This document shows positions 1 through 17,705 of a stretch of DNA of 64,000 nt, piece after piece. This stretch comes from an uncultured virus (IMG/VR IMGVR_UViG_3300037631_006629) (lineage: Duplodnaviria; Heunggongvirae; Uroviricota; Caudoviricetes), in the IMG/VR virus record IMGVR_UViG_3300037631_006629, positions 1 to 64,000 of that record. One strand, given 5' to 3'. How positions within the stretch are numbered: the stretch's first letter is position 1; the number at the start of each line of letters is the position of its first letter. The position numbers and the translations under genes are program-made. Under the pieces are notes generated by a model. That model ran no database searches, was not told where the DNA came from, and was given only the letters and a program-made list of their open reading frames with translations.

Positions 1-1475
1 CACTGAAGTATTGAACTGTGAGAATTCGCAGAAATAACGTTAATTTCCCCTTGCAGATACAAAGTTTTCATTTTAGAAAGAACTGTAAGTATTTTTACTA
101 CATCGTTTAAATTTAATGACTCGTGTTTGTATATTTCAATGGCCTCGCTCCCCCAGATCATATCTTCTAATCCTTTAGACACGTTGTTGGAAAGTATTAG
201 TTCGTCAATATACTGACTATCTTCTGTAGGGTTTTCTATAAAGTAATCTATCATTTCATCTTTAAAATTAGGCCCTATTAGATTAAAGTTTTTGTGTTCA
301 ACACAAAAAGCAATTAATATACAGAAAAAATCGTTTATATACTCTTTATTTTTATACATTTTACTTAATTCATCAATCGCGACATTAAAATCAGATTTAT
401 TAAGTATGTCATTTCTTTCAAGAAAACTAAAAGGAAGCGGAGCATCATCATATATTAAATCATTGTAAACTAGTTCTTCTTTATAACTTCTCATTATATG
501 CTCAACTACTTTTTTGTCATTTGTGTATTTTAAATAGCTTGACATTTCTTGATTTATTGTGTCGTCTCCAAGTCCTTGTGCATTCATTTGTTTTTCTATT
601 CTTAAGATTTGGCTTAAGGTAGCTTTTGAATACATCTCAGCAAATGACGTTTCTTTTCTGGTACTTACTCTATTTACAATCAAGTCTAATATGTCTTTGT
701 TAACTATATCGTTTATTGTTGTTGAGTCTATAGATTGATTTTTAGCATCAACTGTCGATCCACCTTTTTCTTCTAATATGGCTTCACCTTCATACACAGT
801 ATATGACAAACAAAGTCTTCTATTCACAGACTTGTCATTATCATAGTCTGTTCTTATAACATAAAACATGTGCAAATTACCTGCGTAATTTGGAAACATG
901 TTATTCCCTGTAGAGACTCCAGTGCACCAACCACTTCTTCTTTTCGGGTCAGTCTCTTCCGAACCGTCAGGTTTTCCATGTGTCCATGCTATTGAACCCT
1001 GTATTGTTTTAGGTTCAATCACAATCCAGTCACGACCACTATACACAACGTCAAAGTCTTGATAACTCCCAATTATAGGCTTACCACTCTGATATCTGCA
1101 TTGTTGCCTAACTTCATTTTTATTAAAACTGGACTTAGCATCTATTTGTTTTCTAAGTTCATCAATAGAAATATTGCCACTACCTATTTGATCTTTAATC
1201 TTTGGCCCTACTGATTGATAGATTTTTTTATAATGAAGCTTGCAAACATCTAATATTTCTTTAACGGGCTCTTGAGTTGTATTTATTTCATTTTGAATGA
1301 CTTGTGTATATTTTGTGATAAATCTATTACTATTCCAAAATTCTATAAAATACTTAATTTCCCTTTCAGATCTTTCTTTTTTCTGTAATGTTTGAATTAA
1401 TTCATCTCGAGAAATTATCTTGTGCTCGTTAAGAAGAAAAGTCTTCCATTCATTTAATAACTGTGTAGTTTTCAC
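1..1475 (-). CDS. Partial gene (3' end runs off window); PcfJ-like domain protein with packaging-type leader
   Basis: Not in ORF track. GTG start at 1475 gives MKTTQLLNEWKTFLLNE; same frame contains WIVIEPKTIQGSIAW...GWCTG...NMFPNY...MFYVI, typical of phage PcfJ-like domains. Only partly translated by hand. Confidence 0.7.
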   Translation of the reverse strand, partial: MKTTQLLNEWKTFLLNEHKIISRDELIQTLQKKERSEREIKYFIEFWNSNRFITKYTQVIQNEINTTQEPVKEILDVCKLHYKKIYQSVGPKIKDQIGSGNISIDELRKQIDAKSSFNKNEVRQQCRYQSGKPIIGSYQDFDVVYSGRDWIVIEPKTIQGSIAWTHGKPDGSEETDPKRRSGWCTGVSTGNNMFPNYAGNLHMFYVIRTDYDNDKSVNRRLCLSYTVYEGEAILEEKGGSTVDAKNQSIDSTTINDIVNKDILDLIVNRVSTRKETSFAEMYSKATLSQILRIEKQMNAQGLGDDTINQEMSSYLKYTNDKKVVEHIMRSYKEELVYNDLIYDDAPLPFSFLERNDILNKSDFNVAIDELSKMYKNKEYINDFFCILIAFCVEHKNFNLIGPNFKDEMIDYFIENPTEDSQYIDELILSNNVSKGLEDMIWGSEAIEIYKHESLNLNDVVKILTVLSKMKTLYLQGEINVISANSHSSILQ

Positions 1476-1595: not shown

Positions 1596-4500
1596 TTGTC
1601 TATTGATTTAATAACACCACCAAATAGATTTGTATCGCTTCATTCACACTCAACTTTTAGTACTTTTGATGGTCTAGGATATCCAGCAGATCACATTGAT
1701 TTTGTTCTTTCTGAATCACAAGGAATGGATGCTTGGGCACTAACAGATCATGGTAATGGTAATGGTCTTGCACATGCTCATTCGCATGCTGTTAAAATGC
1801 AAAAAGCAGGCAGAAAGTTTAGACAAATATACGGAGTAGAATTCTATTTTGTTCCTTCACTAGATCAGTGGACTAGCGACTATGCAGATCACAAGCAATC
1901 AATTAAAGATGCAAAAACAGCTGCTGCAGCTGAAAAGAAGAGTAAAGAAAAAATCATTATTGATGCTGATGATGAGAGTGGTGGTCTTGTCATAGAGGAT
2001 GAAGATGAATCTAAAAAGATTGATATACTTAAAGATGAGTGGAAGCGACGTTATCACTTAGTAGTTACAGCAAGAAATAGAAAGGGTCTTAATAATCTAT
2101 TTACCCTTGTAAAAAAATCATACAAAGACGGCTTTTATAGATACCCGCGCATTGACTTTAAAATGCTTAAAGAGCACGGCGAAGGTTTACATGTCAATAC
2201 AGCATGCTTAGGAGGCATATACAGTAATAGAATACTTCGTGGTGTAGCTCATGACAAATCACGTGATGAAATCCAAAAAGACCTGCAAAACTTATCAGAT
2301 AGATTTACAGATGCTGTTGGTATTGAAAACTTTAAGTTAGAGCTACAATTTAACAAACTTAATAAGCAACACGTTGTTAATGACTATCTTATTGAGCATC
2401 ATAAGCTAACGGGTATTCCACTTATATCAACAGCAGACTCTCATTACCCGAGCAATGACAAATGGCAAGCAAGAGAGTTATATAAAAAGCTTGGATGGTT
2501 AGGCAAGAAAGATGGTCTAACGCTTCCAGCATTTGAAGATCTTAAGTGTGAGTTGTATCCAAAAAACGCTCAGCAGATGTGGGATGAGTTTCTTGAAGGT
2601 TACAAAGAACACGATTTTTATAAAGGTAACGAGCAGCTAGTTAAAGAGTCAATAGAAAGAACACATGACATTGTCTGGAATGATTTTGAAGATACTTGGA
2701 TAGATGTAAGTGCAAAGCTTCCAACAATATCAATTCCTAACAAAACACCTTTTAAACACCTATCAGACTTAGTCAAGAACGCTTTAATCAGCGAAGGTTT
2801 ACATACTAACAAAGAATATGTAGATAGAGCTAAATATGAATTGTCTGATATTAAGTATTTAGGACATGAAGCTTATTTCATTACAATGTATGAAATCTTT
2901 AAAAAGGCTGAAACGAAGACATTATTTGGTCCTGCTCGAGGAAGTGGTGGAGGTTCTTTGGTTAACTATCTATTAGGCATTACTCAGCTTGACCCTATTC
3001 CTTATAACTTACTTTGGAGCAGATTCTTAGGTAGGCATCGTGTTTCTTGGCCAGACATAGACACAGATGCTGGTGATCGCGATGAACTCATCAATGCAGC
3101 TAAAGAGCTATACGGTGATGATGCTGTTATTCCAGTATCAAACTTCAACACACTTAAGCTTAAGTCGCTAGTAAAAGATATTGCAAAGTTTTATGATATT
3201 CCATTTGACGAAGTAAATAAGGTAACTGGCCCTCTTCAAGATCAAGTAATGCAAAAAGCAATGGACAAGAATCAAGAAAAGTCTGTGTTCGTTCTTAAGC
3301 ATGAAGATTGCATGAAACACTCTCCTGAGTATAATTCGTTTATGACAGAATACCCAGAAGTTGCTGAGCATGTTGAAACTTTATTTATGCAGAATAGAGC
3401 TATTGGTAGACATGCAGGAGGCGTAATAATAGCAGATGCTGATTCACTAGCTGAATCTATGCCTATTGTTGGTGTTCGTGGTGAACTACAAACTCCGTGG
3501 ACAGAAGGTATGAACTTTAGAAATCTTGAAGATAACGGATTTTTAAAGTTTGACTTTTTAGGTTTAACACTGCTCAAGGACGTAGAAAACTGTATATATA
3601 GAATTCTTAAAAAACAAGGAAATCCTAACCCAACATTCTCAGATGCTCGAGCATTTTTTGATAAGTATTTAAATTGTAGGTTTGTAAAACAGGATGATAA
3701 AAAAGTTTGGGAACATGTATATAAGGACGGTCACTTTTGCGGTGTTTTCCAATTTACAGCTGTAGGTGCAAGAAACTTTGCAAAAGAGGCAGAGCCTGAT
3801 TCAATTGAGGAACTAGCAGCATTAACTGCAATTTACCGTCCGGGACCTCTTAAAGCAAATGTACATAAGAAATATGTTAAAGCAAAGAGAAACGTAGGTG
3901 ATATAAAATATGAGCATCCTATTATTGAAAAGATACTTGGCCCAACATTTAACTATGTAGTGTTTCAAGAGCAGTTTATGCTTTTAGCACAAGAGCTAAG
4001 CGGATTTGATCCTGGCGAAGCTGACAAGCTTAGAAAGACTTTGGTAAAGAAGTCTTTAGATACTCTACATTCTAAAGGCTCAGAAAAGGCAATTGCTAGA
4101 GATAAGTTTATTAAAGGTGCTAAAGAGCTAAACGATGTTCCAGAATCAGTATCATCTAAGTTATGGGCAGACATAGAAAATTTTGCTGTTTACGGCTTTA
4201 ACAAATCCCATGCTATTGCATATGCTATCGGGTCATATTATGCTGCTTGGTTGCATACTCATTATGAGACTGAGTGGCTTGCTGCGATATTGCAATCTGA
4301 AAATGGTAATCCTAAAGGCATGTCAAAAGCAATTTCAGAGATTAAATCTTTTGGTTACGAGATTGCTGCAATCGATATAAATCACTCAGGTCTAGAATGG
4401 GAATATTCTGATGTGTTGAAAGCCTTTGTGCCGCCTTTGACTTCTCTTAAAGGAGTAGGAGACAAAGCTGTTGAAGAAGTATTTGCAAATAGACCATACA

Positions 4501-5171
4501 AAAATTTAAATAATTTATTTTATGATACAGAAGGTGCATGGAAACATTCAAAGCTAAACAAAACAGCTTTTTCATCGCTAGCGAAGATGGAAGCATTTAA
4601 GTCTCTTGATGAGTTTAAAGATAATACACTTGATAATCATAAACAACTCCATGATTTGATCCTCGATAATTATGCTATTTTAAAGAAAGGTTATTGGGGA
4701 ATGACAAAAACTGCAGTAAAAAGAGCAAAAAAGAACGAAGAAACAATTGTCCCTATTGTAGATCATTTAATTACTAGATATAAAGTTATTAGTGACTGGT
4801 GCAGATCAGAAAAAATAAAGAATTATTTCAATCTCAGCAATGATGCAAGTGATGACCTCCTATTTCCACCTAAATTAATAAATCGATTAAAACAGAAACA
4901 AATTAACAGCGTATTTGATATACCACAAGGTGAAAGAGGAATTGGCTGGTTTACAGTTACTGAGGTAATACATAAGACAACAAAGAATGGTAAGGCTTTT
5001 ATGCGCTGGAAGTGCGTTGACTCAGATAATCGTAGTGGCTGGCTACGTGTGTGGGGAAGCATTGAAGAAGGAGTTGAATTTAGTACATGGCTTGTAGACG
5101 TAAAGAATGATGCTGGTTGGGGTATGTCTACTAATTTAGGCAAGCTTAAAAAGATTAATGCTTTTGATTAA
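1596..5171 (+). CDS. dnaE: DNA polymerase III alpha subunit (family C, DnaE-type)
   Basis: PHP domain (LHSHS, TDHG, GVE, YHL, ADSHY), GPARGSGGGSLV, PDIDTD, KFDFLGL, YGFNKSHA, C-terminal OB fold; TTG start with AAAGG SD. Confidence 0.96.
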   Translation: MSIDLITPPNRFVSLHSHSTFSTFDGLGYPADHIDFVLSESQGMDAWALTDHGNGNGLAHAHSHAVKMQKAGRKFRQIYGVEFYFVPSLDQWTSDYADHKQSIKDAKTAAAAEKKSKEKIIIDADDESGGLVIEDEDESKKIDILKDEWKRRYHLVVTARNRKGLNNLFTLVKKSYKDGFYRYPRIDFKMLKEHGEGLHVNTACLGGIYSNRILRGVAHDKSRDEIQKDLQNLSDRFTDAVGIENFKLELQFNKLNKQHVVNDYLIEHHKLTGIPLISTADSHYPSNDKWQARELYKKLGWLGKKDGLTLPAFEDLKCELYPKNAQQMWDEFLEGYKEHDFYKGNEQLVKESIERTHDIVWNDFEDTWIDVSAKLPTISIPNKTPFKHLSDLVKNALISEGLHTNKEYVDRAKYELSDIKYLGHEAYFITMYEIFKKAETKTLFGPARGSGGGSLVNYLLGITQLDPIPYNLLWSRFLGRHRVSWPDIDTDAGDRDELINAAKELYGDDAVIPVSNFNTLKLKSLVKDIAKFYDIPFDEVNKVTGPLQDQVMQKAMDKNQEKSVFVLKHEDCMKHSPEYNSFMTEYPEVAEHVETLFMQNRAIGRHAGGVIIADADSLAESMPIVGVRGELQTPWTEGMNFRNLEDNGFLKFDFLGLTLLKDVENCIYRILKKQGNPNPTFSDARAFFDKYLNCRFVKQDDKKVWEHVYKDGHFCGVFQFTAVGARNFAKEAEPDSIEELAALTAIYRPGPLKANVHKKYVKAKRNVGDIKYEHPIIEKILGPTFNYVVFQEQFMLLAQELSGFDPGEADKLRKTLVKKSLDTLHSKGSEKAIARDKFIKGAKELNDVPESVSSKLWADIENFAVYGFNKSHAIAYAIGSYYAAWLHTHYETEWLAAILQSENGNPKGMSKAISEIKSFGYEIAAIDINHSGLEWEYSDVLKAFVPPLTSLKGVGDKAVEEVFANRPYKNLNNLFYDTEGAWKHSKLNKTAFSSLAKMEAFKSLDEFKDNTLDNHKQLHDLILDNYAILKKGYWGMTKTAVKRAKKNEETIVPIVDHLITRYKVISDWCRSEKIKNYFNLSNDASDDLLFPPKLINRLKQKQINSVFDIPQGERGIGWFTVTEVIHKTTKNGKAFMRWKCVDSDNRSGWLRVWGSIEEGVEFSTWLVDVKNDAGWGMSTNLGKLKKINAFD

Positions 5172-6148: not shown

Positions 6149-7042
6149 ATGAGATTTTTAAATATTAATATAGAAGGTCCTGATTGTAGTGGTAAGACTA
6201 CACTTTTTAATAGAATTCATAAAGAAACAAGCTTTAAGTACAACATACAAGACAGAAGCTGTATGTCAATGTATGTTTATGCAAAATTGTATGAAAGAGA
6301 TAACGCTTCTTTTTGGTTTGATAAAGTTCTTGAAGACATTAAACGATTAGATACATTATATATTGTTCTTTTACCTTCAAACCATACTGTGTTAGAAAGA
6401 CTAAGAAAAAGAGGTGATGAGTTTCAAGATGAAGAAAGCATTATGGATGTCAAACGTTTATTTTACAACTTAGTTAAATGCGGATTTGGTAACTTTCCAA
6501 ATGTTTTAGTGCTAGAAGACATTGAAGATTTAACGCAGAAAGTTGATATGTGTTTAAGCTTTATTGAAAGTTTAAATGAATTTCCTAGTGGCGACTTAAT
6601 AAAGTCTATTGTTATTAATAGCGGCAGAAACGAATTAGTTGACGTACAATGCAAGGAAGTAGTTGACATTAGCTCTTTAGACTACACAGCATTAAATTTT
6701 CCTGAAGAAAAATCGTATTATGAAAAAATTACTACAGATATTGAAAATAAGATCTTTAAAGAATTTGCAGGTTTAAATTCACATAATACACCACAAAAAC
6801 ATGACAGTAGAAGATTTGTTTATACTGATGCAAGTTGTATATCGCTTATTCATGCTTTGTTTCGAAAGAACAGACTAAACGTTTCAGTGACACTTAGATC
6901 TTCAAATGTAATTAAAACACTCTGGGCAGATTATGAATTTTTAAAGATAATTAGTGTAAAATTAGCAGAACTTATGCAACTTGACGAAAGCATACCAGTC
7001 GATTTGACTATTAATATAAGGTCTGCACATATTGTACCTTAA
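6149..7042 (+). CDS. dNMP kinase fused to minimal thymidylate-synthase-fold domain
   Basis: N-terminal IEGPDCSGKTT and DR motif; C-terminal SRR...C230...R250-SSNV...D261...SAHI matches TS spacing. Confidence 0.75.
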   Translation: MRFLNINIEGPDCSGKTTLFNRIHKETSFKYNIQDRSCMSMYVYAKLYERDNASFWFDKVLEDIKRLDTLYIVLLPSNHTVLERLRKRGDEFQDEESIMDVKRLFYNLVKCGFGNFPNVLVLEDIEDLTQKVDMCLSFIESLNEFPSGDLIKSIVINSGRNELVDVQCKEVVDISSLDYTALNFPEEKSYYEKITTDIENKIFKEFAGLNSHNTPQKHDSRRFVYTDASCISLIHALFRKNRLNVSVTLRSSNVIKTLWADYEFLKIISVKLAELMQLDESIPVDLTINIRSAHIVP

Positions 7043-7051
7043 GGAAATTAA

Positions 7052-7621
7052 ATGAATCCGTTTTTTAAAATATATACGGGTCCAATGTTTGGATCAAAAA
7101 CAACAAGGCTAGTAGCAGAAATCGATCGTTCTTCTTATAAAGACAGAAAAATTTTTGCTTTTAAAGCAAAGAAAGATAAAAGATACGACGCTGAATCTAT
7201 ATCTACACATAGTGGTGTTACATGGCCTGCAATTTGTATCAATGATGCACTAGAAATATTTGACTATTTAAACGATGATTATAATCTTTCTAATGTGTTA
7301 ATTGCTGTAGACGAAGCTTTTATGATTAAAGGAATTGATGAAGCTTTAATTTCTTTATTTTTTAAAGGCGCTAATATTGTAGTTTCTACAATTCAATTAG
7401 ATGCAAACGAAAGACCTTTTGAAAATATAAAAAACATGTTGCCTTTTGCAACGCATATTGAAATTTGTCCGGCAGTTTGTACAAAATGCAATAACGATGC
7501 TTATTATACAGCAGCAATGTTTGACATAGATAACGCAACAGATGAAGAGCGAGTTGGTTCTAAAGACATGTATGAGCCAAGATGCTCAAAACATTACAAG
7601 GCATTTTTTAAATATGAATAG
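7052..7621 (+). CDS. tdk: Thymidine kinase
   Basis: GPMFGSKTT, VDEAF, CTKC...Y-x-PRC zinc-lasso region. Confidence 0.93.
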   Translation: MNPFFKIYTGPMFGSKTTRLVAEIDRSSYKDRKIFAFKAKKDKRYDAESISTHSGVTWPAICINDALEIFDYLNDDYNLSNVLIAVDEAFMIKGIDEALISLFFKGANIVVSTIQLDANERPFENIKNMLPFATHIEICPAVCTKCNNDAYYTAAMFDIDNATDEERVGSKDMYEPRCSKHYKAFFKYE

Positions 7622-7651: not shown

Positions 7652-8548
7652 ATGTCAATAAAATTTAAATCAGCAGAAATGTACTATGGAATACGTGTAT
7701 ACATTTCTGAAAATTCAGACAAAGATTTTTATTTAACAAAATCTTTGATTAACAACTTAAAAAACGTTGAAATAAAATTTAGACAAAATAGAATAAATAC
7801 ACCGGTAGCAGACTTATTTAAACATCTTGTTATAATAAAAGGAAGTAAAGAAAGAAGTAGTATTGACAAGATACATAAATCTGGAGCTGCTAATTGGAGG
7901 GCTTTTTTTAATCCAGACACAGAGACTATAGCTTTTGACTTGCAACACTTTAAAAACGAAGAAGCATTAATTAATACTTTAGTTCATGAAATAGGTCATG
8001 CAATACATGTTAAATTTGTAACGCCAGATGCTAGCAAATACATTTCAGTAGTAGGAAAACAATATGTTAATGTTATAGTTAGTCTCAAAGACCTTAAAAG
8101 TATTGTTGAACAAAACGTACATGACGACGACTTGTGCATGAGACTTATAAAAAAAGCTGAAGATGTATTTTATGATTTTGCAGATTTACTAGATAACAGT
8201 ATTAATTCTTCAGACTACGATGAAAATCATAAAACTTCAAATATTTCTTTCCAAATATGTGAAGAATATGAACTGTATCTTAAGGAAAAAGGAATTAAAA
8301 CTTATGTTTCAAAAATTGAAAAAATGATTAGTGTAATAATGAAATTTATACCTTCTGAGTATGGTGCCACAGAAGAGAAAGAGTTTTTTGCTGAGTGTTT
8401 TAGGCAGTTTATTTTAAGCCCAGATGATCTTTCTTTGAACAATAGAAACATGATCATTAATGCATTAACATATTCTAGAGCACAAGGTAAAGAATTAATG
8501 CAGGCACATAAGCTTTTAAAAAACTATGTTAGATATATTATTGATTAA
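7652..8548 (+). CDS. Zinc metallopeptidase-like protein (HExxH)
   Basis: LVHEIGHAIH plus distal SEYGATEEKEFFAECF. Confidence 0.65.
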   Translation: MSIKFKSAEMYYGIRVYISENSDKDFYLTKSLINNLKNVEIKFRQNRINTPVADLFKHLVIIKGSKERSSIDKIHKSGAANWRAFFNPDTETIAFDLQHFKNEEALINTLVHEIGHAIHVKFVTPDASKYISVVGKQYVNVIVSLKDLKSIVEQNVHDDDLCMRLIKKAEDVFYDFADLLDNSINSSDYDENHKTSNISFQICEEYELYLKEKGIKTYVSKIEKMISVIMKFIPSEYGATEEKEFFAECFRQFILSPDDLSLNNRNMIINALTYSRAQGKELMQAHKLLKNYVRYIID

Positions 8549-8972: not shown

Positions 8973-9398
8973 ATGGAAAATATAGCTCGTCCCTCTTGGG
9001 ACAAAATATGGATGACAATGGCAGAAACTATTGCACAAAGAAGTCATCATTCTACTTTCAAGGTAGGCGCTATTATAGTAACGTCAGATAATACACAAGT
9101 GCTTTCTTTGGGGTATAATGGTAATGCTGCAGGATTATCAAACGTACCTCAATCTGAAGAACCTGGCTGTAGTGGTTTATTACATGCTGAAATTAATGCT
9201 TTACTTAAGCTGGATTATAATAACCCAAAAGATAAAGTTATGTATTTGACGTTAAGCCCTTGCACAAACTGCGCGATCGCTGTTATTAATAGTGGAATAA
9301 AAAAAGTAGTCTATAAAACAAAGTATAGAGACGATACAGGCATTAACATGTTAACATCTGCAGGTGTGTTAGTAGAGCAATTTAATTTAAACAAATAA
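8973..9398 (+). CDS. dCMP deaminase
   Basis: RPSWD, VGAII, GYNG, HAEINA, SPCTNC. Confidence 0.92.
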   Translation: MENIARPSWDKIWMTMAETIAQRSHHSTFKVGAIIVTSDNTQVLSLGYNGNAAGLSNVPQSEEPGCSGLLHAEINALLKLDYNNPKDKVMYLTLSPCTNCAIAVINSGIKKVVYKTKYRDDTGINMLTSAGVLVEQFNLNK

Positions 9399-9470: not shown

Positions 9471-12400
9471 ATGAGTCTAAAACTTAAAGACGCTTTATTT
9501 GAAACTAATGAAAAAAATCTATATAAGATTTTTGAAAAAGCAGATAAAAGAGAACTTGAAGGAAATGTTCAAGCGCTTAATAAGCAAAAACTACAAGCTG
9601 TGGTTAAAGCAATTGCAACTTCTTTAAATAACAAGTTACCGGATACGGAAACTGTAAAGCTAAAAGACGTAATGAAGTCTCCTTTAGGTGTTTTTGGTTT
9701 TAATGACATTAAAGCACTATCAAATGTTCCTATTGCACTAGGTCTAAAAATTGATCCTGTTAACATTAAAGGAGATCAATCACAAGGCATTGATCCTCTT
9801 TCTTTTAAAGCTGCAGATACTTTTGATATTATGCCAATACAGATTGTTAACAAATTTGGTGAGGCAATAGGTGGAAATGTTAAAGGCAACGAGATGATAG
9901 GAATTGCTTATTTTCCTGCAATAATGAAACCTTTAGATAATCCAGAATTTCATGTTAAAAGATTTGGATTGAAGCCTCCAGAAAAAGGTAATACTTTAAT
10001 GCATATGAAGGTACCTTTAGATATTCCTGTTGAGCTGGTTACTAAAGAAGAGTTTGAAGAGATTCAAAAAGCTTTTCTTACAGGTAAAGAAGCAGTTATT
10101 AATAGAATTAGTAATTTGCAAAAGTCTAGAATAAGTGGAGGAGTTCCGGAGCAAGCAGGTCAAAGTGATGTTGCTATGTCAAAGAATAAGAGAAAAACAT
10201 CTGCAGACAATAAAGATGCGAGTAGTAACGAAGATAAAGATATAGACAACAAGACAGATTCAATAGAAAAACCAGATAAAATGCCAGAAGCATTTAACTT
10301 TTCTACAGGAAAAAAACTTCATGAACATTCTTTGTCATCATTGCTTTTAGAGAGTCAAGATGAAGATCCAGTTACAGAACCTGCAGCAAAATTGGACAAA
10401 GGTGGTGCGCAAGCGGAAATCGTTCCTCAACGAGTTGAATTTATGCTTAAAGATTTTCCTGGAGTAACTATTGAGCAAATGTTTTCTGTAGGTTCTGATA
10501 TTTTTGCAGGAGATGAAAAAATAAGAAAAGCTGGTGTTGCCGGCGTTATTGACGATAATATAGAACAAAAACTAGATTCATATTTTGATAGTATGAGTAG
10601 CTTTCAATTAGCATGTTTTTATCTGTACCTTGAAGCTATAGGTGAAATGGATGAATTTAATGCTACAGCTAATCAAACGGTATGGAAAAATTATATAAAT
10701 AATAATTTTGGTGGTTCTATAGAAAATATGGTAACCGCGTTTAAAAGCAATCCTGAATCTCTTGATTTAAAACAAAATGGTATTACTAAAGATGAATTAG
10801 TAGCTTTATTTGATGATTTAAAACAACCTGAAGTTCAGGTTGCAACTCATATAGATAATTCTGTAAGTGGTGATAGTAAAGGATCGGCTACAGACCCTTT
10901 CAGTGAAGATCTTGATTCATTGTTTGACATAATAGATGTTGATGGTGTTGATGGTTGGTCGAACATGGATCCAGATGAACAAATAGATGCAGTGAGCTCA
11001 AATCTAAGTGGCAGTCAATTACAACAAGTACTTAATACAGCTGAAGAAAACACTGGTAACGAAATGACGATACAAGCATTAACAAATGCTGATGCACCTT
11101 TTTGCAATTTAGTTGTTGGAAATGAAAAAGAAAGTGACGAAAAATCTAGTATTCTATTTTTTCAAAGTATACAAATGTCCCCTAAAGGTAGACGTAAAAA
11201 AAATATTGTCTTTATAATCTTATTTAAAGATAATGGTGGCTACGAATTTTTAAGGAAAGATCATAAATTTGATACATACAAAGAAATAATAGATAATCTT
11301 GCAGACTGCGCACTATATGATATTTCAAAAAACAAAGAACCCGATGTGCTTTCTATTTTATCTAGAATAAAAGAATTAGATGCCACCGAAGGCAAACAAA
11401 CGATTACTAAAACGCTTCAAGATGAATTTAATATAGATATTGAACATCTTGAAAGTCAAGATGATGACAAAGGGCAAGAAAAACCAGACGAAATTCAACA
11501 AGCTAGTTCTAAAGTTCCTAATGCGCCAAGCGAAGAAGAGCAAAAAGCTTACGAAGGATTTCAAGATATTTTTAGTGCTAATCGATATGATAATAATTTG
11601 TCGACAGCGCAAAATAATATTTCAAAAGTACAAGACACAGAGCAAAAAATTCCAGATAAAATAAAGTCTAAAATCGATCAGATTGACAAATTATCTGGAG
11701 TCGATCAAAATGATATTAAAAATGTAGGTGCGCTTTTAAATGCAAAGAGCGATTTATGTCGAACTATGTCAACTGTAATGGATGACGTAGAAGATTGTGC
11801 AAAAAATTTATCAAAACTTGTAAAATTTAAACCAAAAATAAGTGAAGAAGGCGAAGAACGAAAATTTGTGCCTAAGTATAGGACTAAATCTTTTGTTGCG
11901 GGTCTTGATTATGTTAAAAAAGTTGCTAATTTAGTAGAAGAAACTTTTAATGCTATGGGAATTAGTGAATTTCTTTCTCAAGAAAGTGAATCTCAAAATA
12001 CTGTTGCTATGCTTAATAACAGTGCTCGTCCAATTGTAAAAAGTATATTAGACTTTAAATATAAAGATAATAAAAGATCATATTCTCAATTTAGTCAATG
12101 GAGCAAAACTTATAAAATAAGTACTCGAGTAAATGATCAGTGGGAAAAAAAGACTGGCGATGATGTTAAAAATTCTATTCAATATTTAATTGAAGAGTTA
12201 GTAAAAGCATTTAAAAAAGGCTCAGCACAAATAGAAAAAGAGCTTAATAATGCTATTGAAGATTTTAGTAAAGAAAACGCTGAAGCTTTAAGTAAAGTTG
12301 AACAAGGTGCCTTTAATTGGCGTGAAGGTTTAAAATATGATATTGATAAAATATACAAGCCTTTTAGTAAAATAAGTGGTATTGATATAACATACGAGAC

Positions 12401-15400
12401 GTTTGAATCTTATTTCGACTCATTTGTTGAGCAGGCACAAGAAAGAGTAGAAACTTCAAAAAAAGAGTTTGACCCAAGCATTTTAGAAAAGCCTTTAGTA
12501 TTAGACTTAGATGCTGTAATTGGTGAATTAGAAAAAGTTAATATTAAAGACGAATCTATTAATGACTTGGCAATTATATTGGCTAGAAACTTTATTGAGA
12601 TAGATGATAAAAAACGTCAGCAATTAACTGCTGTTGAAGCACAAAGATATTTTGTAGAATCTTTTTATGAAGCATTAGATATTCAAGGAAAGAGCGGAAG
12701 ATTTTTAGAAAATGCTAACAAAAAAGGTGAGCCTTTAAATGAAATTGTAGGAGTCGCAGCTGGTGCAGTAGCAAGTGCAGCTTTGTTTTGTGGCGTTACT
12801 CTAGGCACTTCTATTGTAATTATTGCTCTTGCAGGTTATGGAATAGGTCAGATTACTGGTTTTGATGACTGGATTAAACGAAAATTATCAAAAAAAGTGC
12901 TTAAAAAGCAAGACGTTGTTGAAGCTATAATGGATAATGACGAAATGGTAGCAGCATATAAAAAGCTAATAAAAGTTAGTTTGTTAAAAGCTGCGCAAGA
13001 ATACTTTATATCTCTTGAAAGTAGTTTAGAAGAAAAATTTAATATTAAGCTAAAATATAGTAATCAAAAAGAATATAGGGCAGTAAAGACTAGACAGCAA
13101 GAAGAGAAAAAGTCTGCTAAAGCTATTGAAAACATGTCTGACTTTGGTAAAGAGCTTATGACAAAAATAGAAGATGTTGGACATGATGTTCTTCCTTCTA
13201 TGCCGGGATCACAACACTTTTCTGATGTCACAGTGACACGTGTTAATAGTGCGCTTAGAGAAAGCAAGCATATTAACATGATAATTAATCATTTAAGTGA
13301 TGGCAATACTGCAGGTCAAGAAAATGCTGGGTTTGTGTATCAAAAAGGCTTGGGTCAGCTTATTCTTAAAGAATCAGAAGAAAATTCTGTGTCAAGCAAA
13401 AAAGAGCAAATAAACATTCCAGTAAATAAAATGTTTGGAGAGCTCAAGAGACTTATTGGTCAGTCTATTTCTAAAACAAATTACAATGAAAAAATCCTCA
13501 GAGACTTAGAAAAAGACTTTATAAAGTACGGTAATGAAAATTCTTCAAAAATAAGCATAACAAAAGCAGAGAACAAAACAATCCCAGTTAGTTTTGTAGT
13601 ACAAAAAATATCTGCTTACACTGGTATACCTCAAGCTAAAATTAAAAAGCAGCTTTTTGAAAGCAAAAATAGAAATTCAAACTTAATAAATTACAATAAT
13701 AAAAAGAACATTGAAAACTTAATAAACGAAAACATTCTAAGTGGTTCTCTTGCTAATCTTTTACTTGAAGAAAGTTCAGTTGTATCACATGTAAGCTCTG
13801 CAGGTCAATATTCAAGAGATGGTCGATTCTATTTTGAGAACTTGCAAAGCAAGGGCAGCGATGGAGTGGAGAAATATGATTACTATGTTACTGACTTTGC
13901 TAAAAGTATTAAAAGGCCTACAATAAAATTTGATCTTAATGATGTTGGTATTGTACCGTCAAAGGGCAGTCAGTTTACCATTAGTTCTGAAGATGGGGCT
14001 GATCCTACACCTTTTGTTAGATTTAGTGTTGAACACAATGGTGTTAAAAAAGTTTTAAGATTTAGAGCAGATGGAATTGCTAGTGATTTTGACAAGGATG
14101 TAAAAATATTCTTGAAATTGAAAAATATGGATGCTGCGGAAAGGATGAGATACTCTGATCAAATTAGTAAAATATCTAATCGACTTGGTAATCTAAAAGG
14201 AAAAATTGATCCTAATGGTAAGATTACAATAACATCAGACGGTGAGAATGTAGGTATAATAAAGAATGTTAAAGAATTTAAAACGCCTCCAATTAGTAGA
14301 ACTAATAAATTAACTGAAGATAGATTTAATGATATGATTGAAAGTACGTCAGCTAAGGGTGAAATTTATCTATCTGCTTCAGAAAATTTACAAGCGAAAC
14401 ATGATCAATTTCTACTACATAAATTAGGTGGTGAACGTAGTGATTACGTAGTAAAAAAAGGTTTAGCTATTCCTAAAGAACACATGCTAGAAGGAGAAAT
14501 ACAGTGGGGAGATTCAGACGTTATTGAAGGTGTAAAAGCTTTTAAAACTAATGGGGAATTTGTTGAAATAAAAATTGCTGCTGGATCAACTAGCGGTGAA
14601 ATTGTTACAATTTCACCTGATGGTGTAGAGCTAGCTTCTAGATCACGAGTTATAGAGCTTAGAGACAAACTTGTCGGAAATCCAGTAAAGTTTAAAACTA
14701 CAGGTGATACAATTTCAGATAATGGTTTAGTTTCTTCAAAACTAGAAATGTCTGCGAAGGCAAAGGAAACTCTAGGTAGTGCTGGTACTGAGGTTGGTGA
14801 ACAGGCTGGTGCTGAGGCTGGTGCTGAGGCTGGTGCTGAGGCTGGTGCTGAGGCTGGTTCAGAGGCTGGTTCAGAGGCTGGTTCAGAGGCTGGTTCAGAG
14901 GCTGGAGAGCAAGCAGCTGGTGAACAAGCTGGAGAGCAAGTAGATACAGAAATTAAGGACGTCAAGTCTAATGATTCTAATATAGACATTTTTAAAGATG
15001 ATAAAGTAGATTCAATTGATCAAGATGCTTTAGATGAAATATATAAAGATCATATGAGAACAGACTCAGGCGGTAATATTAGACTAGACGCTCAACATTT
15101 AGATGATGATTTTGAAAAGTTAGGTTATAAAGTAGATACTTCTAATAGTGTTGGTGAAATAAAACTATATAGGATTGACTCAGATGGCAATGCATCTTCG
15201 GAAGTAATAGAAACTTTTGAAAACAGTCCGGATGGTGTTAAAGATCTTTGTCAAAAAATAAACGATTTGAAAGGTCAAAGTAATATTTCTTTAGAAGTTA
15301 AAGAAATTAATATGGAAACTAAAACTTTAACAAAAATCGATCCAGAGTCTGAAGGTTTTTTTGCAGGTGCTAAGAAATTCTATAACGACTTGTTTGATTC

Positions 15401-17705
15401 ATCTTCTAGTGTGACAGACAAGACTCTTTCTAATATTGCTATATCTAAAGGCCCACCTATGACTGGTCCTGATGCTGAAGCATTTCAAAACTTATTTAAT
15501 GCTGACGGTTTTGAGTCTGCTAAAGTTTTTGAGCTCAAAGGCGGAGGTGGAATAATTGACTTTGGTAATGGTAAAGTAATTGCTTCACCTACAATTGAAA
15601 ATCTAAAAGAGCAATATGGTATAATAGCACAAAATAACTTTGATTTTAAAGTTGCAATGGCTAAAGAGTTTGGAAAGGAATATGCAACTGTTTCAAGCGG
15701 TGCTGAAGTTGTAGAACCTACGCTTGGTGAGGCTTTAGTGGGGAAAATAGGTGCATGGTTGCCAATAATTCCTTTAGCACTTTATGGTTATAAAACTTTT
15801 AAGAGCATACAGTCAGCTAAAAAAGACGTTATAATAAAAGCTATGTTAGATAGCATTAAAGCTGAGTCTGATATAGGTTTCTTTAACATTTCAGCATCTG
15901 TGCCTTTAGCTTATAAAATATGTAAGTTACTAGAAGAAAACAAACAAACATTAAAGGAAAATGGTATTAATATTGTTGGTTCTCTAGGTCAAGAAAAAGC
16001 AGGAACTACTGGAATGGGTAGCCAAAAGTTAGCTTCAAGCAAACTTGTATCTTCTCTTAAGCAGCAACTTAGAACTAGTACTAGTGGTCCGTTTAAGAAG
16101 TGGAGAGGACAATCAAAGGCAAGTGGCGTAAATGCAGATAGTATTACAGATGATCAAATTGCGCAAGCAATAAACGGAGGTTTAACACAGATCTGTGTTG
16201 GTCTTCTTAAGATTTATGATAAAGAAAGATATAAAGAAACAGTTAAGACTGCAGATAAGGAAAGCTACAGTAAAGAAGCTTCTAAGTGGTTTAAAAGCAA
16301 AAATTATGACAATGTCATTAATAGAATTGGTGGTGAAGAAGTTTCCAGTAATAGAGAAAAAATGCTGCAAAAAAATGTTTCAAAAGAAGTAGAGCTATTA
16401 TCAAACTTTATTATTGGACTAAATAGAGACTCAAAAGGTTTAGGTGAAAGCTTTTACAAAAACAAACTAAAAAACCTTTTGTTTGAAACAGGATTTTTGA
16501 CTGAAGTTTCAAATAAAACAATTATTGACGTTAAAGAACTTAAAAGTGGATTAAGATCTTCTGGTGTAGCAGTATACTCTTCAGGATTAAAACCTGATAG
16601 CAAAGATTTCGTTGAAGGTGAAAACTATTTAGTTGGTACACTTGCAGACTTTTTATACACTAACTTTGACATTGAAGTTAAAGGAGTAGAAGAATATCAA
16701 AAGCTCAACTTAACAAAGGTTGCTGTAGAAGCTGATGTTGATCAAGATGCAAAAGTTGGTGAATCTGCTTCTAAAGAGCTTGAAGCTGTTGTTGGTAATG
16801 GACCGGTTGCACAAAACATGAATGCACCTATGGACTTAAATCAGCTAGCTGGTTTAATTAATATGAGCGGCGGCAATAATGCACTTTTGCTTATACTACT
16901 CCTTTCACAACAACCTCAACTTCTTCAAGCACTTGTTGCACTTCAAGGTAAAGGTGGTGCTTCTTTATTAGACGGACTTAACTTAATAAAGCAAGAAGCA
17001 CCTGAAGATGCTAAAGAAAAGCTTGAAGGGATTGATAGAGACATAGAACAAGCTTTGGAGTATCAAAACAACTCTAAACCAAATATGTCAAAGAAAGATG
17101 TTAAAAGGCTTTATAAACTACTAAATGCTGATCCTTTGAGCAAGCTAAGCAATCAAAATATAATATCAGGATCAAAAATTAACATAAAAGATTCAAGCAT
17201 GTTTGTTGCAAACTTAAGACGCTATTTTAATATAACAGATGGAAATGTAGGTTATAGTGATGATGATGTCTTTAAATTATTTAATTTTATGCTTGGTGTT
17301 AATGGATTTTATGATACAGAAAATCTTAAAGCATCTAATGATGAAGGTTATTATAAACATGATAGCAACAAAGTAATTGATAATAGTGAACAAGAAATTA
17401 TGTATATAACAACCTGCGCAGGCCTTTATTTAGCTGCAAAGTTTCTTAGACTTGATCATGATAGTATTATTAAAACCTACATAATGAAAGCAATTGCAGG
17501 AACTGACGATGATAAAAATACTTTTTATAGTAAATTAAATCAAGGAAACAATGTTATATTTACTTCGCTTGATATACCAGAGTTAACTGCAGAGAATAAA
17601 TTTAGAAAATCAAAGGTAATTACAAGAAAGCCTAAAAAACTAAAAGTGATAGAAGAGGCTAAGTTTTTGGAGCAAGAGTTTAAACGATTATGGAATTTAA
17701 GATAA
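9471..17705 (+). CDS. Giant 2744-aa protein, probable virion/ejection polyprotein
   Basis: Long ORF with many internal LxE motifs, two hydrophobic segments and a G/A/E repeat linker; function inferred. Confidence 0.6.
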   Translation: MSLKLKDALFETNEKNLYKIFEKADKRELEGNVQALNKQKLQAVVKAIATSLNNKLPDTETVKLKDVMKSPLGVFGFNDIKALSNVPIALGLKIDPVNIKGDQSQGIDPLSFKAADTFDIMPIQIVNKFGEAIGGNVKGNEMIGIAYFPAIMKPLDNPEFHVKRFGLKPPEKGNTLMHMKVPLDIPVELVTKEEFEEIQKAFLTGKEAVINRISNLQKSRISGGVPEQAGQSDVAMSKNKRKTSADNKDASSNEDKDIDNKTDSIEKPDKMPEAFNFSTGKKLHEHSLSSLLLESQDEDPVTEPAAKLDKGGAQAEIVPQRVEFMLKDFPGVTIEQMFSVGSDIFAGDEKIRKAGVAGVIDDNIEQKLDSYFDSMSSFQLACFYLYLEAIGEMDEFNATANQTVWKNYINNNFGGSIENMVTAFKSNPESLDLKQNGITKDELVALFDDLKQPEVQVATHIDNSVSGDSKGSATDPFSEDLDSLFDIIDVDGVDGWSNMDPDEQIDAVSSNLSGSQLQQVLNTAEENTGNEMTIQALTNADAPFCNLVVGNEKESDEKSSILFFQSIQMSPKGRRKKNIVFIILFKDNGGYEFLRKDHKFDTYKEIIDNLADCALYDISKNKEPDVLSILSRIKELDATEGKQTITKTLQDEFNIDIEHLESQDDDKGQEKPDEIQQASSKVPNAPSEEEQKAYEGFQDIFSANRYDNNLSTAQNNISKVQDTEQKIPDKIKSKIDQIDKLSGVDQNDIKNVGALLNAKSDLCRTMSTVMDDVEDCAKNLSKLVKFKPKISEEGEERKFVPKYRTKSFVAGLDYVKKVANLVEETFNAMGISEFLSQESESQNTVAMLNNSARPIVKSILDFKYKDNKRSYSQFSQWSKTYKISTRVNDQWEKKTGDDVKNSIQYLIEELVKAFKKGSAQIEKELNNAIEDFSKENAEALSKVEQGAFNWREGLKYDIDKIYKPFSKISGIDITYETFESYFDSFVEQAQERVETSKKEFDPSILEKPLVLDLDAVIGELEKVNIKDESINDLAIILARNFIEIDDKKRQQLTAVEAQRYFVESFYEALDIQGKSGRFLENANKKGEPLNEIVGVAAGAVASAALFCGVTLGTSIVIIALAGYGIGQITGFDDWIKRKLSKKVLKKQDVVEAIMDNDEMVAAYKKLIKVSLLKAAQEYFISLESSLEEKFNIKLKYSNQKEYRAVKTRQQEEKKSAKAIENMSDFGKELMTKIEDVGHDVLPSMPGSQHFSDVTVTRVNSALRESKHINMIINHLSDGNTAGQENAGFVYQKGLGQLILKESEENSVSSKKEQINIPVNKMFGELKRLIGQSISKTNYNEKILRDLEKDFIKYGNENSSKISITKAENKTIPVSFVVQKISAYTGIPQAKIKKQLFESKNRNSNLINYNNKKNIENLINENILSGSLANLLLEESSVVSHVSSAGQYSRDGRFYFENLQSKGSDGVEKYDYYVTDFAKSIKRPTIKFDLNDVGIVPSKGSQFTISSEDGADPTPFVRFSVEHNGVKKVLRFRADGIASDFDKDVKIFLKLKNMDAAERMRYSDQISKISNRLGNLKGKIDPNGKITITSDGENVGIIKNVKEFKTPPISRTNKLTEDRFNDMIESTSAKGEIYLSASENLQAKHDQFLLHKLGGERSDYVVKKGLAIPKEHMLEGEIQWGDSDVIEGVKAFKTNGEFVEIKIAAGSTSGEIVTISPDGVELASRSRVIELRDKLVGNPVKFKTTGDTISDNGLVSSKLEMSAKAKETLGSAGTEVGEQAGAEAGAEAGAEAGAEAGSEAGSEAGSEAGSEAGEQAAGEQAGEQVDTEIKDVKSNDSNIDIFKDDKVDSIDQDALDEIYKDHMRTDSGGNIRLDAQHLDDDFEKLGYKVDTSNSVGEIKLYRIDSDGNASSEVIETFENSPDGVKDLCQKINDLKGQSNISLEVKEINMETKTLTKIDPESEGFFAGAKKFYNDLFDSSSSVTDKTLSNIAISKGPPMTGPDAEAFQNLFNADGFESAKVFELKGGGGIIDFGNGKVIASPTIENLKEQYGIIAQNNFDFKVAMAKEFGKEYATVSSGAEVVEPTLGEALVGKIGAWLPIIPLALYGYKTFKSIQSAKKDVIIKAMLDSIKAESDIGFFNISASVPLAYKICKLLEENKQTLKENGINIVGSLGQEKAGTTGMGSQKLASSKLVSSLKQQLRTSTSGPFKKWRGQSKASGVNADSITDDQIAQAINGGLTQICVGLLKIYDKERYKETVKTADKESYSKEASKWFKSKNYDNVINRIGGEEVSSNREKMLQKNVSKEVELLSNFIIGLNRDSKGLGESFYKNKLKNLLFETGFLTEVSNKTIIDVKELKSGLRSSGVAVYSSGLKPDSKDFVEGENYLVGTLADFLYTNFDIEVKGVEEYQKLNLTKVAVEADVDQDAKVGESASKELEAVVGNGPVAQNMNAPMDLNQLAGLINMSGGNNALLLILLLSQQPQLLQALVALQGKGGASLLDGLNLIKQEAPEDAKEKLEGIDRDIEQALEYQNNSKPNMSKKDVKRLYKLLNADPLSKLSNQNIISGSKINIKDSSMFVANLRRYFNITDGNVGYSDDDVFKLFNFMLGVNGFYDTENLKASNDEGYYKHDSNKVIDNSEQEIMYITTCAGLYLAAKFLRLDHDSIIKTYIMKAIAGTDDDKNTFYSKLNQGNNVIFTSLDIPELTAENKFRKSKVITRKPKKLKVIEEAKFLEQEFKRLWNLR
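14805..14939 (+). repeat. In-frame 12-bp tandem repeat (AGAE x4, AGSE x4, then degenerate AGEQ)
   Basis: gctggtgctgag x4 then gctggttcagag x4. Confidence 0.95.

Follow-up and report, generated by a model that had tools for sequence, protein, structure and literature searches.

A phage gene that joins a YorR-like nucleotide kinase to a miniaturised thymidylate-synthase fold: a candidate dCMP-modifying enzyme

Introduction

RB69 gp48 and DLP3 gp80, two homologues of thymidylate synthase (TS), convert deoxycytidine monophosphate (dCMP) to 5-hydroxy-dCMP (5hodCMP) with O2 and a loosely bound flavin, according to the main text of a recent study (Lee et al., NAR 2026; PMC13326640), in which RB69 gp48 is presented as an experimentally verified 5hodCMP synthase. 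Here, we describe a gene of an uncultured marine giant phage in which a much smaller TS-like domain and a kinase domain are combined in one open reading frame (ORF), 6149..7042. The gene is located in the first 64 kb (64,000 nucleotides, hereafter called the window) of the 73,967-base IMG/VR record IMGVR_UViG_3300037631_006629, which has a CheckV completeness of 29%. The G+C content of the window is about 30%. An AAGGA sequence resembling a Shine-Dalgarno motif is located 7 nt ahead of the ATG of the ORF.

The same main text proposes that an Asn at the position of E. coli D169 is diagnostic of 5hodCMP synthases, nine further D169N homologues being active, and it describes an acidic residue at the position of E. 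coli L143. Table 1 of the study lists the 'nucleotide kinases' DLP3_078 (top hit YorR, 3kb2), RB69p045, and RL38J1_214, with YorR or thymidine monophosphate (TMP) kinases as the top hits, and each of these kinase genes lies two to three genes from the synthase gene, beside nucleoside diphosphate (NDP)-sugar genes and glycosyltransferase genes. In the RB69 record, p045 is annotated as 'thymidylate kinase', p048 is present, and a DNA polymerase gene is found at the end of the cluster.

A shared logic of modifying enzyme plus deoxynucleoside monophosphate (dNMP) kinase is seen in T4, which has the dCMP hydroxymethylase (dCH) gp42 (1b49/6a9a), the dNMP kinase gp1, and the dCTPase gp56. T4 gp42 is folate-dependent, comprises 246 amino acids (aa), and carries D171 at the D169 position as well as Tyr218; gp1 is a separate protein, which we take to belong to a kinase family different from that of the kinase described here. 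MilA (5jnh), the mildiomycin CMP 5-hydroxymethylase, is a folate-dependent bacterial protein of 318 aa with a ribonucleotide substrate, and the main text of PMC13326640 describes it as a cytosine-nucleotide-specific TS homologue with Asp. A full-text literature search found no paper describing the fusion; the supplements of PMC13326640 were outside this search and could conceivably include such an IMG/VR homologue, and the terms 'fused', 'fusion', and 'kinase domain' are absent from the text of that study.

Results

A TS fold of about 150 residues is predicted for the C-terminal domain

The full-length fusion was modeled with AlphaFold2 (AF2; predicted local distance difference test, pLDDT, 97.1; predicted template modeling score, pTM, 0.90). 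A model of residues 141-297 (pLDDT 95.9) was used as the domain model and was aligned, without the use of Foldseek, to 48,161 representatives of the PDB. Seven chains reached a Z score of at least 8, and all seven were members of the TS superfamily (Z 8.9-11.3, with 135-142 of the 157 residues aligned); the next chain had a Z score of 6.0. The seven chains were 9iqc, a dCMP hydroxylase (Z 11.3, root-mean-square deviation (rmsd) 2.7, 136 residues aligned), 3ix6, a ThyA (Z 11.2, rmsd 3.1, 142 aligned), 3v8h (Z 10.3), 6auj (Z 10.2), 8dae (Z 9.2), 5jnh, which is MilA (Z 9.1, rmsd 3.3, 140 aligned), and 6l18, which is T4 dCH (Z 8.9). A Foldseek search of the PDB with the full model ranked 9iqu (AfhB, the dCMP hydroxylase of phage HY126, E 2.2e-5) at the top, followed by 9iqc, entries of T4 dCH, and E. 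coli TS, and the first matches of the domain in BFVD were phage dCMP hydroxymethylases, at the top, and TS. With language-model features, 23 of 30 Atlas hits belonged to the PF00303 set (best score 0.92), and PHROGs yielded phrog_160, 'thymidylate synthase', for aa 227-295 of the fusion (E 7.7e-4). Pfam PF00303 itself was not listed for the fusion even at E <= 10. The models thus assign residues 146-297 to a TS fold of only about 150 residues.

A sequence-only reading of the ORF had proposed a two-domain protein with a set of named catalytic residues at ThyA-like spacings. All of these residues could be read directly in the translation, i.e., S220-R221-R222, C230, R250-S251-S252-N253, D261, and H294, which is followed by I295-V296-P297 and the stop codon. 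The distance from C230 to R250 is 20 residues and that from R250 to D261 is 11 residues; the E. coli ThyA protein, translated from the K-12 record, has the same spacings from C146 to R166 and from R166 to N177. This translation was also used to check the E. coli numbering. Profile alignments with hhalign resulted in the same mapping. The family profile was aligned to T4 gp42, the best single-sequence profile match, with a probability of 93.1 (E 3.1e-7, 82 columns), to RB69 gp48 with a probability of 89.7 (E 1.9e-6, 81 columns), and to E. coli ThyA with a probability of 62.7 (E 7.2e-5, 61 columns). In the T4 gp42 alignment, C230 corresponds to C148, D261 to D179, and H294 to H216, and V296 is found at the position of Tyr218 (E. 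coli Tyr209). In the ThyA alignment, the SRR motif falls on R126/R127, an 11-residue gap precedes the Cys, C230 is paired with C146, R250-S251-S252-N253 with R166-S167-C168-D169, and D261 with N177.

The likeness is thus shared with several described enzymes. With ThyA (PF00303), the domain shares the fold, the spacing C-20-R-11-(N/D), and the predicted dimer with its shared Arg pair described below, but it has Asp in place of Asn177 and Asn in place of Asp169. The Cys nucleophile and the specificity Asp are common to the domain and T4 gp42, D261 being the dCMP-type Asp at the N177 position. The predicted fold is also that of MilA and of the 5hodCMP synthases (RB69 gp48, DLP3 gp80, RL38J1 gp216, and AfhB of HY126, 9iqu/9iqc), and with RB69 gp48, the SRR motif, the Cys, the R-S-x-N motif, the Asp specificity residue, the S-A-H motif, and a short end after the His are all shared. 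N253, moreover, is aligned with the Asn of the sequence R-S-Q-N in RB69 gp48 and is thus the residue proposed to be diagnostic of this group.

The differences concern mainly the size. The 157 residues of the model span residues -4..210 of ThyA 3ix6 (about 215), so that about 60 ThyA residues are without counterpart. Between the helix ending at 207 and S220, the fusion has 13 residues, compared with about 60 in E. coli ThyA, and the catalytic His is followed by only 3 residues, compared with 15 in RB69 gp48, 30 in T4 gp42, and 57 in E. coli ThyA. The W80/W83/Y94 region and the last 57 residues of E. coli ThyA have no counterpart, and the folate-contacting elements, namely the W80/W83 segment, D169, and the C-terminal tail, are not found in the fusion; in T4 gp42, in contrast, the folate segments are retained. 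The 5hodCMP synthases have 217-238 residues, whereas about 55 residues between the Glu helix and the SRR motif and 11 residues before the Cys are missing in the domain of the fusion, which is, in addition, below the detection limit of PF00303. Two further residues may have counterparts in the larger enzymes. E205 (65 of 72 family members) lies in a K-x-x-x-E-x-x-G-x-N context that resembles the E58 helix of E. coli, and although this stretch was left unaligned by every tool, the local motif suggests that E205 may be the general acid/base E58. The region of E. coli L143 is at the edge of the 11-residue deletion, and D227 or A228 may correspond to it, the alignment being ambiguous. Taken together, the fusion is a fused, miniaturised variant within the TS superfamily, and the expectation that it would have a TS fold without being a normal ThyA was borne out by the structure matches, by the absence of a PF00303 hit, by the 157 residues that span about 215 residues of ThyA, and by the missing tail after the His.

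The active-site residues are conserved in a large marine family

A search with the whole protein resulted in 292 homologues at E <= 0.001. The 120 of these that were listed are 66-95% identical to the query, have a length of 295-297 aa with two exceptions, and stem from marine sources, including Tara. A search with the C-terminal domain alone resulted in 115 clusters (50% identity), of which 58 had E <= 1e-10, and 66 of the clusters represent proteins of 280-330 aa with the domain at the extreme C-terminus. The fusion family was seen on uncultured viral contigs only, and some members carry the JGI label 'thymidylate kinase'. A tblastn search of 50,697 phage records with the query, P0134, and P0212 did not reveal any full-length match in a cultured phage, although close relatives of the window's genome may be missing from the set searched; hits to the N-terminal kinase alone were obtained for P0212 only, in 3 records. 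The 151-aa protein A0A3G1L3Q7 of Synechococcus phage S-CBWM1 in BFVD matches the model of the TS-like domain over its whole length (TMt 0.61, rmsd 4.5, 158 columns) and, judged by this model comparison, may represent the domain as a separate protein in a cultured cyanophage.

Conservation was quantified in an alignment of 72 full-length members that are 24-87% identical to the query. In the TS-like site, C230 was found in 69 members, R221 in 69, R222 in 67, R250 in 69, S251 in 70, D261 in 71, and H294 in 69, in agreement with the sequence-only reading, according to which the Cys and the Asp should be retained in homologues. E162, E187, Y191, E205, and R239 are likewise at least 90% conserved. 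Conservation down to 24% sequence identity argues that the TS-like motifs are not due to chance. In contrast to the catalytic residues, position 253, which corresponds to E. coli D169, is variable (N 45, D 21, H 3, E 2, K 1), so that the Asn noted at this position is a feature of the query but not of the family as a whole. The tail after H294 has 1-18 residues throughout the family and 3 residues in 32 of the 72 members. In a second set, the 78 viral loci analyzed below, C230 is retained in 76.

The N-terminal domain is a YorR/thymidylate-kinase-like P-loop kinase

The full model was most similar to YorR (2axp; VIA-align Z 13.5, rmsd 2.7, 141 residues aligned), followed by deoxyadenosine kinase (2jaq, Z 13.1) and TMP kinases (Z about 12). 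The family profile matched the same protein in the PDB (2axp, E 3.4e-15) and also TMP kinase 5xbh (E 2e-6), and even a single-sequence search of the PDB retrieved YorR 2axp (E 0.0016), together with T4 dCMP hydroxymethylase 1b49 (E 0.85). PHROGs assigned aa 33-119 to phrog_761, 'thymidylate kinase' (E 5.4e-15). A P-loop, a D-R-x motif, and a basic LID, which are the hallmarks used to recognise the nucleoside monophosphate (NMP) kinase fold, are all present, and G10, D12, G15, K16, D35, R36, R84, R88, G89, and D90 are conserved in the 72 members (e.g., K16 72/72, D35 68/72, R36 72/72, R84 72/72, R88 67/72). Residues 1-145 are therefore a YorR/thymidylate-kinase-like P-loop kinase, which shares the fold of the N-domain and the P-loop, D-R-S, and R-x-x-x-R-G-D motifs with YorR of the B. 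subtilis prophage SPbeta (2axp/3kb2) and the bacterial TMP kinases. Unlike these, it is joined to a second domain, and it stays below the TMP-kinase cut-offs of the family databases: in Pfam, the fusion scored 22.7 bits for dNK and 21.5 bits for Thymidylate_kin (PF02223), with a cut-off of 27, and in NCBIfam, the kinase domain scored 23.7 bits for TIGR00041, with a cut-off of 83.25. The family profile matched RB69 gp45 in the P-loop only (probability 90.3, 24 columns).

The TS-like domain is predicted to form a TS-type dimer

When two copies of the domain were predicted together with the alignment, an ipSAE of 0.78 was obtained (0.78, 0.79, and 0.78 in the individual runs), compared with 0.00 for the best of three controls, a score that may reflect the likeness to TS because TS dimers have already been solved. 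The contacts agreed by at least 94% between the runs, and the pLDDT of the partner was at least 89. Of 30 proteins solved as one-chain pairs, 20 attained the mark used for dimers, as did 1 of 23 proteins solved as single chains. The predicted interface uses the sheet and places R221 and R222 (domain residues 81 and 82) against R250 and S251 (domain residues 110 and 111) of the partner. The predicted dimer thus has the TS arrangement, in which the Arg pair reaches into the site of the partner.

The gene is embedded in a deoxynucleotide gene cluster

The genomic context was analyzed for a set of 81 loci, i.e., 80 IMG/VR loci and the window, and the fusion gene was called in 78 of them. A gene for a DnaE-type polymerase and genes for thymidine kinase (tdk) and dCMP deaminase were placed by Pfam where the sequence-only reading had put them (Table 1). 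An epimerase/dehydratase of the short-chain dehydrogenase/reductase (SDR) type with presumed NDP-sugar substrates is encoded in 55 of the 81 loci (PF01370 E 2.7e-49; PHROG 540, 'nucleotide-sugar epimerase', E 5.4e-68), and in 39 of the 78 loci it follows the fusion gene either directly or as the second gene; no NCBIfam equivalog scored above its cut-off for this protein. In distant clades, the typical gene order is Fpg, two MazG-like pyrophosphatases, a ThyX-like paralogue, PF05014, epimerase, DnaE, fusion, epimerase, thymidine kinase, DHH phosphoesterase, and dCMP deaminase. The NDP-sugar genes and the DNA polymerase gene in the vicinity are shared with the clusters of the 5hodCMP phages.

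The phage of the window is also represented by a 115-kb record with an identical fusion gene (L003/G001). Upstream of the region of the window, this record encodes ThyX, a MazG-like protein, a 308-aa pyrophosphatase/5'-nucleotidase fusion, a 328-aa ThyX-like paralogue, a PF05014 protein, and one epimerase. A search for a separate thymidylate synthase, which had been suggested together with the sequence-only reading, revealed ThyX in 18 of 18 related large records, including the record of the window's phage, with two copies in 15, whereas ThyA (PF00303) was found in none of the 18 and was also absent from the phage's own record. Because dTMP can thus be made by ThyX, the TS-like domain is free for another task. 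The all-alpha NTP pyrophosphatases of the window's phage belong to PF08761, a Pfam family that is also matched by the T4 dCTPase gp56. Pfam MazG was found in 1 of 19 records, and the small pyrophosphatases were detected with PHROGs only.

The second, divergent ThyX paralogue, of about 330 aa (PF02511 E 1.9e-20; G001:C1:62432-63004 and L096:6153-7136, minus strand), is encoded beside a canonical ThyX of about 240 aa. This paralogue has persisted in the presence of a dead mini-TS site and could itself make a modified pyrimidine. The 308-aa protein (L096:7232-8155 and G001:C1:63232-64155, minus strand) fuses an all-alpha NTP pyrophosphatase to a 5'-deoxynucleotidase/HAD domain, is present at full length in 14 of 19 records, and could convert a canonical dNTP to the nucleoside.

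The active site and the epimerase were lost together in one sub-clade

Only two of the 78 loci, L013 and L014, lack the Cys. They belong to G003, a record with a completeness of 84%, and to G004, a complete record bounded by terminal repeats, and form a single clade (support 100/100) that is nested in the 12-member clade of the window and is the sister group of the intact loci L008, L009, and L012. In this dead-site pair, E187, R221 or R222, C230, R250, S251, and H294 have been exchanged in the C-terminal domain, while D261, E205, Y190, Y191, and R239 are unchanged. Because the active-site residues were changed together, they behave as one selected site. In the kinase domain, in contrast, all 16 positions with a conservation of at least 93% among the 76 intact sequences have been kept, which indicates that the kinase is useful on its own. 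The two proteins are 76.4% identical in the kinase and 54.0% in the C-terminal domain, a ratio of 0.71, whereas the ratios of thirteen intact pairs were 0.94-1.43. The sequences thus indicate that the mini-TS domain evolves faster once the active site is gone.

The PF01370 epimerase is encoded in 16 of the 19 large records. It is missing from the window's own fragment, the longer record of the same phage containing it, and from the two dead-site records G003 and G004. To obtain a broader view of gene loss, the ORFs of G002, the closest intact relative with a large record (109 ORFs), were compared with those of the window's phage, G003, and G004. The window's phage shares 77 of these ORFs. Both dead-site genomes have 70 of the 77, another 4 occur in just one of them, and 3 were found in neither. 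The three missing from both are the NDP-sugar epimerase, a 95-aa ORF, and an 826-aa protein (Table 1). The faint signal of the latter was found around aa 586-632 (PF01467 E 0.0054; phrog_395 E 0.0013), and PF01467 is annotated for 27-35% of the members of its Atlas clusters (scores 0.96-0.97). This protein was considered as a candidate for the missing transferase, but a PDB sequence search at E <= 1 did not yield a match, and the gene that occupies the corresponding place in G004 is not significantly similar. Since the proteins of the two intact phages are only 25% identical, the apparent loss may be due to divergence. The 308-aa pyrophosphatase/5'-nucleotidase was also considered as a co-lost gene and was rejected, since it is missing from the intact records G002 and G011 as well. 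The genome of G004 is complete with 239,550 bp and 282 ORFs and encodes thymidine kinase, dCMP deaminase, ThyX, dUTPase, and ribonucleotide reductase (RNR).

Table 1. Positions of the fusion gene, its domains and active-site residues, and associated genes
Feature	Position	Strand	Basis
Kinase + mini-TS fusion, whole ORF	6149..7042	+	297 aa; ORF list
N-terminal P-loop nucleotide kinase domain, aa 1-145, YorR/thymidylate-kinase-like	6149..6583	+	VIA-align, profile, PHROGs
P-loop E9-G-P-D-C-S-G-K-T-T18	6173..6202	+	G10 71/72, D12 70/72, G15 72/72, K16 72/72
C-terminal minimal TS-fold domain (predicted), aa 146-297	6584..7039	+	model pLDDT 95.9, structure matches
S220-R221-R222 = E. coli ThyA R126/R127, phosphate binding from partner subunit	6806..6814	+	hhalign
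C230 = nucleophile C146 (E. coli)/C148 (T4 dCH)	6836..6838	+	hhalign
R250-S251-S252-N253 = R166-S167-C168-D169; Asn at D169 position	6896..6907	+	hhalign
D261 at specificity position N177 (E. coli)/D179 (T4 dCH)	6929..6931	+	hhalign
H294 = H207 (E. coli)/H216 (T4); protein end 3 residues on	7028..7030	+	hhalign
DnaE-type DNA polymerase III alpha	1596..5171	+	Pfam; upstream in 81/81 loci, same strand, median offset -2.9 kb
Thymidine kinase (tdk)	7052..7621	+	PF00265 E 1.2e-29; 64/81 loci, same strand
dCMP deaminase	8973..9398	+	PF00383 E 2.6e-23; 62/81 loci, same strand
NDP-sugar epimerase, absent from both dead-site genomes			
95-aa ORF, absent from both dead-site genomes	42574-42861	minus	
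826-aa protein, no homologue found in either dead-site genome	36868..39348	+	faint cytidylyltransferase-like signal; lead only

Discussion

We favor the interpretation that the fusion is a folate-independent dCMP C5-modifying enzyme, closest to the 5hodCMP synthases, which is joined to a dNMP kinase, and we assign it a probability of roughly one in two. The C-terminal domain would be a miniaturised dimeric enzyme that binds dCMP, the phosphate being held by R250 and S251 together with R221 and R222 of the partner subunit and the cytosine being read by D261. Attack of C230 on C6 would activate C5 for a substituent that does not stem from folate. The likeliest product would carry a 5-hydroxy group, generated by flavin/O2 chemistry, or another handle for a sugar. 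The N-terminal kinase would phosphorylate dNMPs, probably the modified dCMP and also dTMP, and would thereby supply the DnaE polymerase encoded by the neighboring gene, and the presence of an NDP-sugar epimerase/dehydratase in the same module in most lineages suggests a later decoration with sugar. As far as the main text of PMC13326640 documents the gene clusters, a YorR-like kinase and a synthase travel together in three unrelated 5-hydroxycytosine phages, and the fusion would thus join that pair. The lack of the sugar genes in the dead-site genome G004 fits this interpretation without testing it.

Several observations weigh against it. Structure gives the hydroxylase no edge over ThyA (Z 11.3 versus 11.2), and the domain is far smaller than any characterised enzyme of the TS family. 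The Asn signature of the 5hodCMP synthases is not family-wide; at position 253, the 78 viral loci have N in 37 cases, D in 29, and E in 12. A glycosyltransferase, as present in the 5hodCMP clusters, was not recognised by Pfam among the 48 ORFs of the window (E <= 0.001) or among 79 further ORFs of the same phage (E <= 1e-4; about 132 kb in total), and GT2 was found in no more than 4 of 19 records, at a distance of over 100 kb from the fusion gene in the placed cases. The 282 ORFs of the complete relative G004 did not contain a glycosyltransferase either (E <= 1e-5), which is not a fair test of the pathway because G004 carries a dead site. The presence of an Fpg/Nei-family glycosylase gene in 13 of 19 records, including 11 with an intact site, speaks against bare 5-hydroxycytosine in the DNA, since enzymes of this type excise 5-hydroxycytosine. 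The idea that Fpg might be a marker that excludes an intact site was rejected, since it occurs in intact records, too. The zinc dCMP deaminase encoded next door is a rival user of dCMP, although T4 presumably also carries such an enzyme. The epimerase and the active site were lost together in one evolutionary event only, so that this link is suggestive, not statistical. Finally, the kinase survives without a TS-like site and is thus not dedicated to the product of the domain. The proposal of the sequence-only reading that the domain channels its product to its own kinase can therefore not describe the sole role of the kinase, which keeps 16 of 16 conserved positions in the dead-site sub-clade. 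Its further idea of a C-to-T pathway did not gain specific support, because the zinc dCMP deaminase and ThyX already cover that route.

Other explanations of the fusion have to be considered. It could be a phage thymidylate (dNMP) kinase with a TS-derived module that does not catalyze anything and serves nucleotide binding, regulation, or scaffolding; such a module might sense dCMP or dUMP, or might tether the kinase to ThyX or the replisome. This would agree with the 'thymidylate kinase' label of some members, with the location in a dTMP-supply block (tdk and dCMP deaminase in 62-64 of 81 loci), and with the dead-site sub-clade, in which the conserved kinase positions are all intact and the C-terminal domain, although dead, has remained a folded domain. 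The fusion kinase is, furthermore, the sole recognisable dNMP-kinase candidate in the complete 239,550-bp relative, but Pfam at E <= 1e-5 misses even the family's own kinase, so that another divergent kinase could be overlooked. A module for binding alone needs no nucleophilic Cys, yet the Cys is kept in 69 of 72 and 76 of 78 sequences and is lost only together with the phosphate-binding residues, and in the intact lineages the C-terminal domain is conserved as much as the kinase or more (ratios 0.94-1.43). We regard a purely non-catalytic domain as quite unlikely. A similarly low probability is assigned to a cofactor-free, Cys-driven reaction on a cytosine nucleotide that feeds or cleans the pyrimidine pool, such as the hydrolytic deamination of dCMP or a 5-substituted dCMP via a 5,6-dihydro adduct, or a reversible reaction that adds formaldehyde to C5 or removes it. 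The parts that contact folate have been lost (the 11-residue deletion, the 13 residues from the helix to SRR, and the missing tail), no cofactor site is evident, and side reactions of this type are known from C5-cytosine methyltransferases in the absence of their cofactor; the AT-rich genome (about 30% G+C) and the position beside tdk and dCMP deaminase would also agree with it. However, 62 of 81 loci already encode a dedicated zinc dCMP deaminase, cells contain little free formaldehyde, and the link to the NDP-sugar enzyme and the joint loss would be left unexplained.

Very unlikely, in our view, is a MilA-like action on a cytosine ribonucleotide or nucleotide-sugar that belongs to a small-molecule or surface-glycan pathway and not to DNA, with the SDR, a nucleoside 2-deoxyribosyltransferase-like protein, and a possible cytidylyltransferase as partners. 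MilA is indeed among the fold matches (Z 9.1, rmsd 3.3, 140 residues aligned), a PF05014 gene, the NDP-sugar SDR, and the faint cytidylyltransferase signal occur in the same phage, and the fusion has a Val at the position of the ThyA Tyr that, as we assume, contacts the 3'-OH of the deoxyribose. On the other hand, the replicative polymerase and deoxynucleotide genes are invariable neighbors of the gene, the kinase domain most closely resembles dNMP and deoxynucleoside kinases, and the PF05014 gene has persisted despite a dead site and is thus not coupled to the activity of the domain. A far-reaching extension of the preferred interpretation, namely that of a dCMP C5-modifying enzyme, would be that a very abundant group of ocean jumbo phages replaces or decorates cytosine by means of a core-only TS fold, devoid of all folate-contacting elements, with a new C5 chemistry, which would use a loose flavin or the co-inherited NAD(P)-dependent SDR, with hand-over by the fused kinase and attachment of the sugar by a glycosyltransferase of an unrecognised type; we consider this extension unlikely.

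If active, the domain would be the smallest known catalytic TS fold and would show which parts of the enzyme suffice for pyrimidine activation. The fusion also ties a synthase to the small YorR-like kinase found in 5-hydroxycytosine gene clusters, where the two are separate proteins. Hundreds of marine viral contigs carry the family (292 close homologues, 115 clusters), so that modified cytosine could be common in the DNA of ocean phages, and this would affect the evasion of restriction and CRISPR, the sequencing bias of viromes, and the nucleotide economy of infected cells. The sub-clade with the dead site and without the epimerase represents a natural control.

Further genes of the phage and its relatives

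Several additional genes were noted in the window's phage and in related phages. A purine trio at 45586-49220 encodes a GMP reductase/IMP dehydrogenase (IMPDH)-like protein, adenylosuccinate synthetase, and adenylosuccinate lyase; the same trio is present in G004 and could convert GMP to AMP for the AT-rich genome. Assignment of the PurA-like gene to PurZ (aminoadenine) was rejected, since it scored 304 bits for PurA and 128 bits for PurZ (cut-off 300). A D12-class N6-adenine DNA methyltransferase (PF02086, E 4.8e-38) is encoded in the same phage beyond the window (L100:7716-8549, minus strand) and has no homologue in G004.

The dnaE gene is called as two or three ORFs in many relatives (L008, L013, L014, L016, L020, L025, and others), with ORFs of 316-339 aa between the pieces. 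A 302-aa endonuclease-like ORF (phrog_29037, E 2.7e-14) is recurrent near dnaE, and the RNR of G004 contains intein domains. These sequences suggest the presence of inteins or homing endonucleases in dnaE of the relatives.

Between tdk and the dCMP deaminase gene, the ORF 7652-8548 encodes a 298-aa protein with an H-E-x-x-H motif and faint zincin-like similarity (SprT-like, MPTase-PolyVal, E about 0.02). A homologue is lacking in G004, whose corresponding slot contains another ORF of 293 aa and an HAD gene. The giant ORF 9471-17705 encodes 2744 aa without any Pfam family and with a run of low-complexity G-A-E-A/G-S-E-A repeats; tblastn did not detect a homologue in G004, and very long ORFs are found at the same place in several relatives. 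Finally, stress and repair genes that are unusual for a phage, several of them syntenic across the family, are located at 18186-18923, 24237-24599, 30546-33180, and 44557-45525 and encode the C-terminal domain only of an Fe/Mn superoxide dismutase, a pterin-4a-carbinolamine dehydratase-like protein, GroEL, a sigma-70 factor, and the UV endonuclease UvdE.

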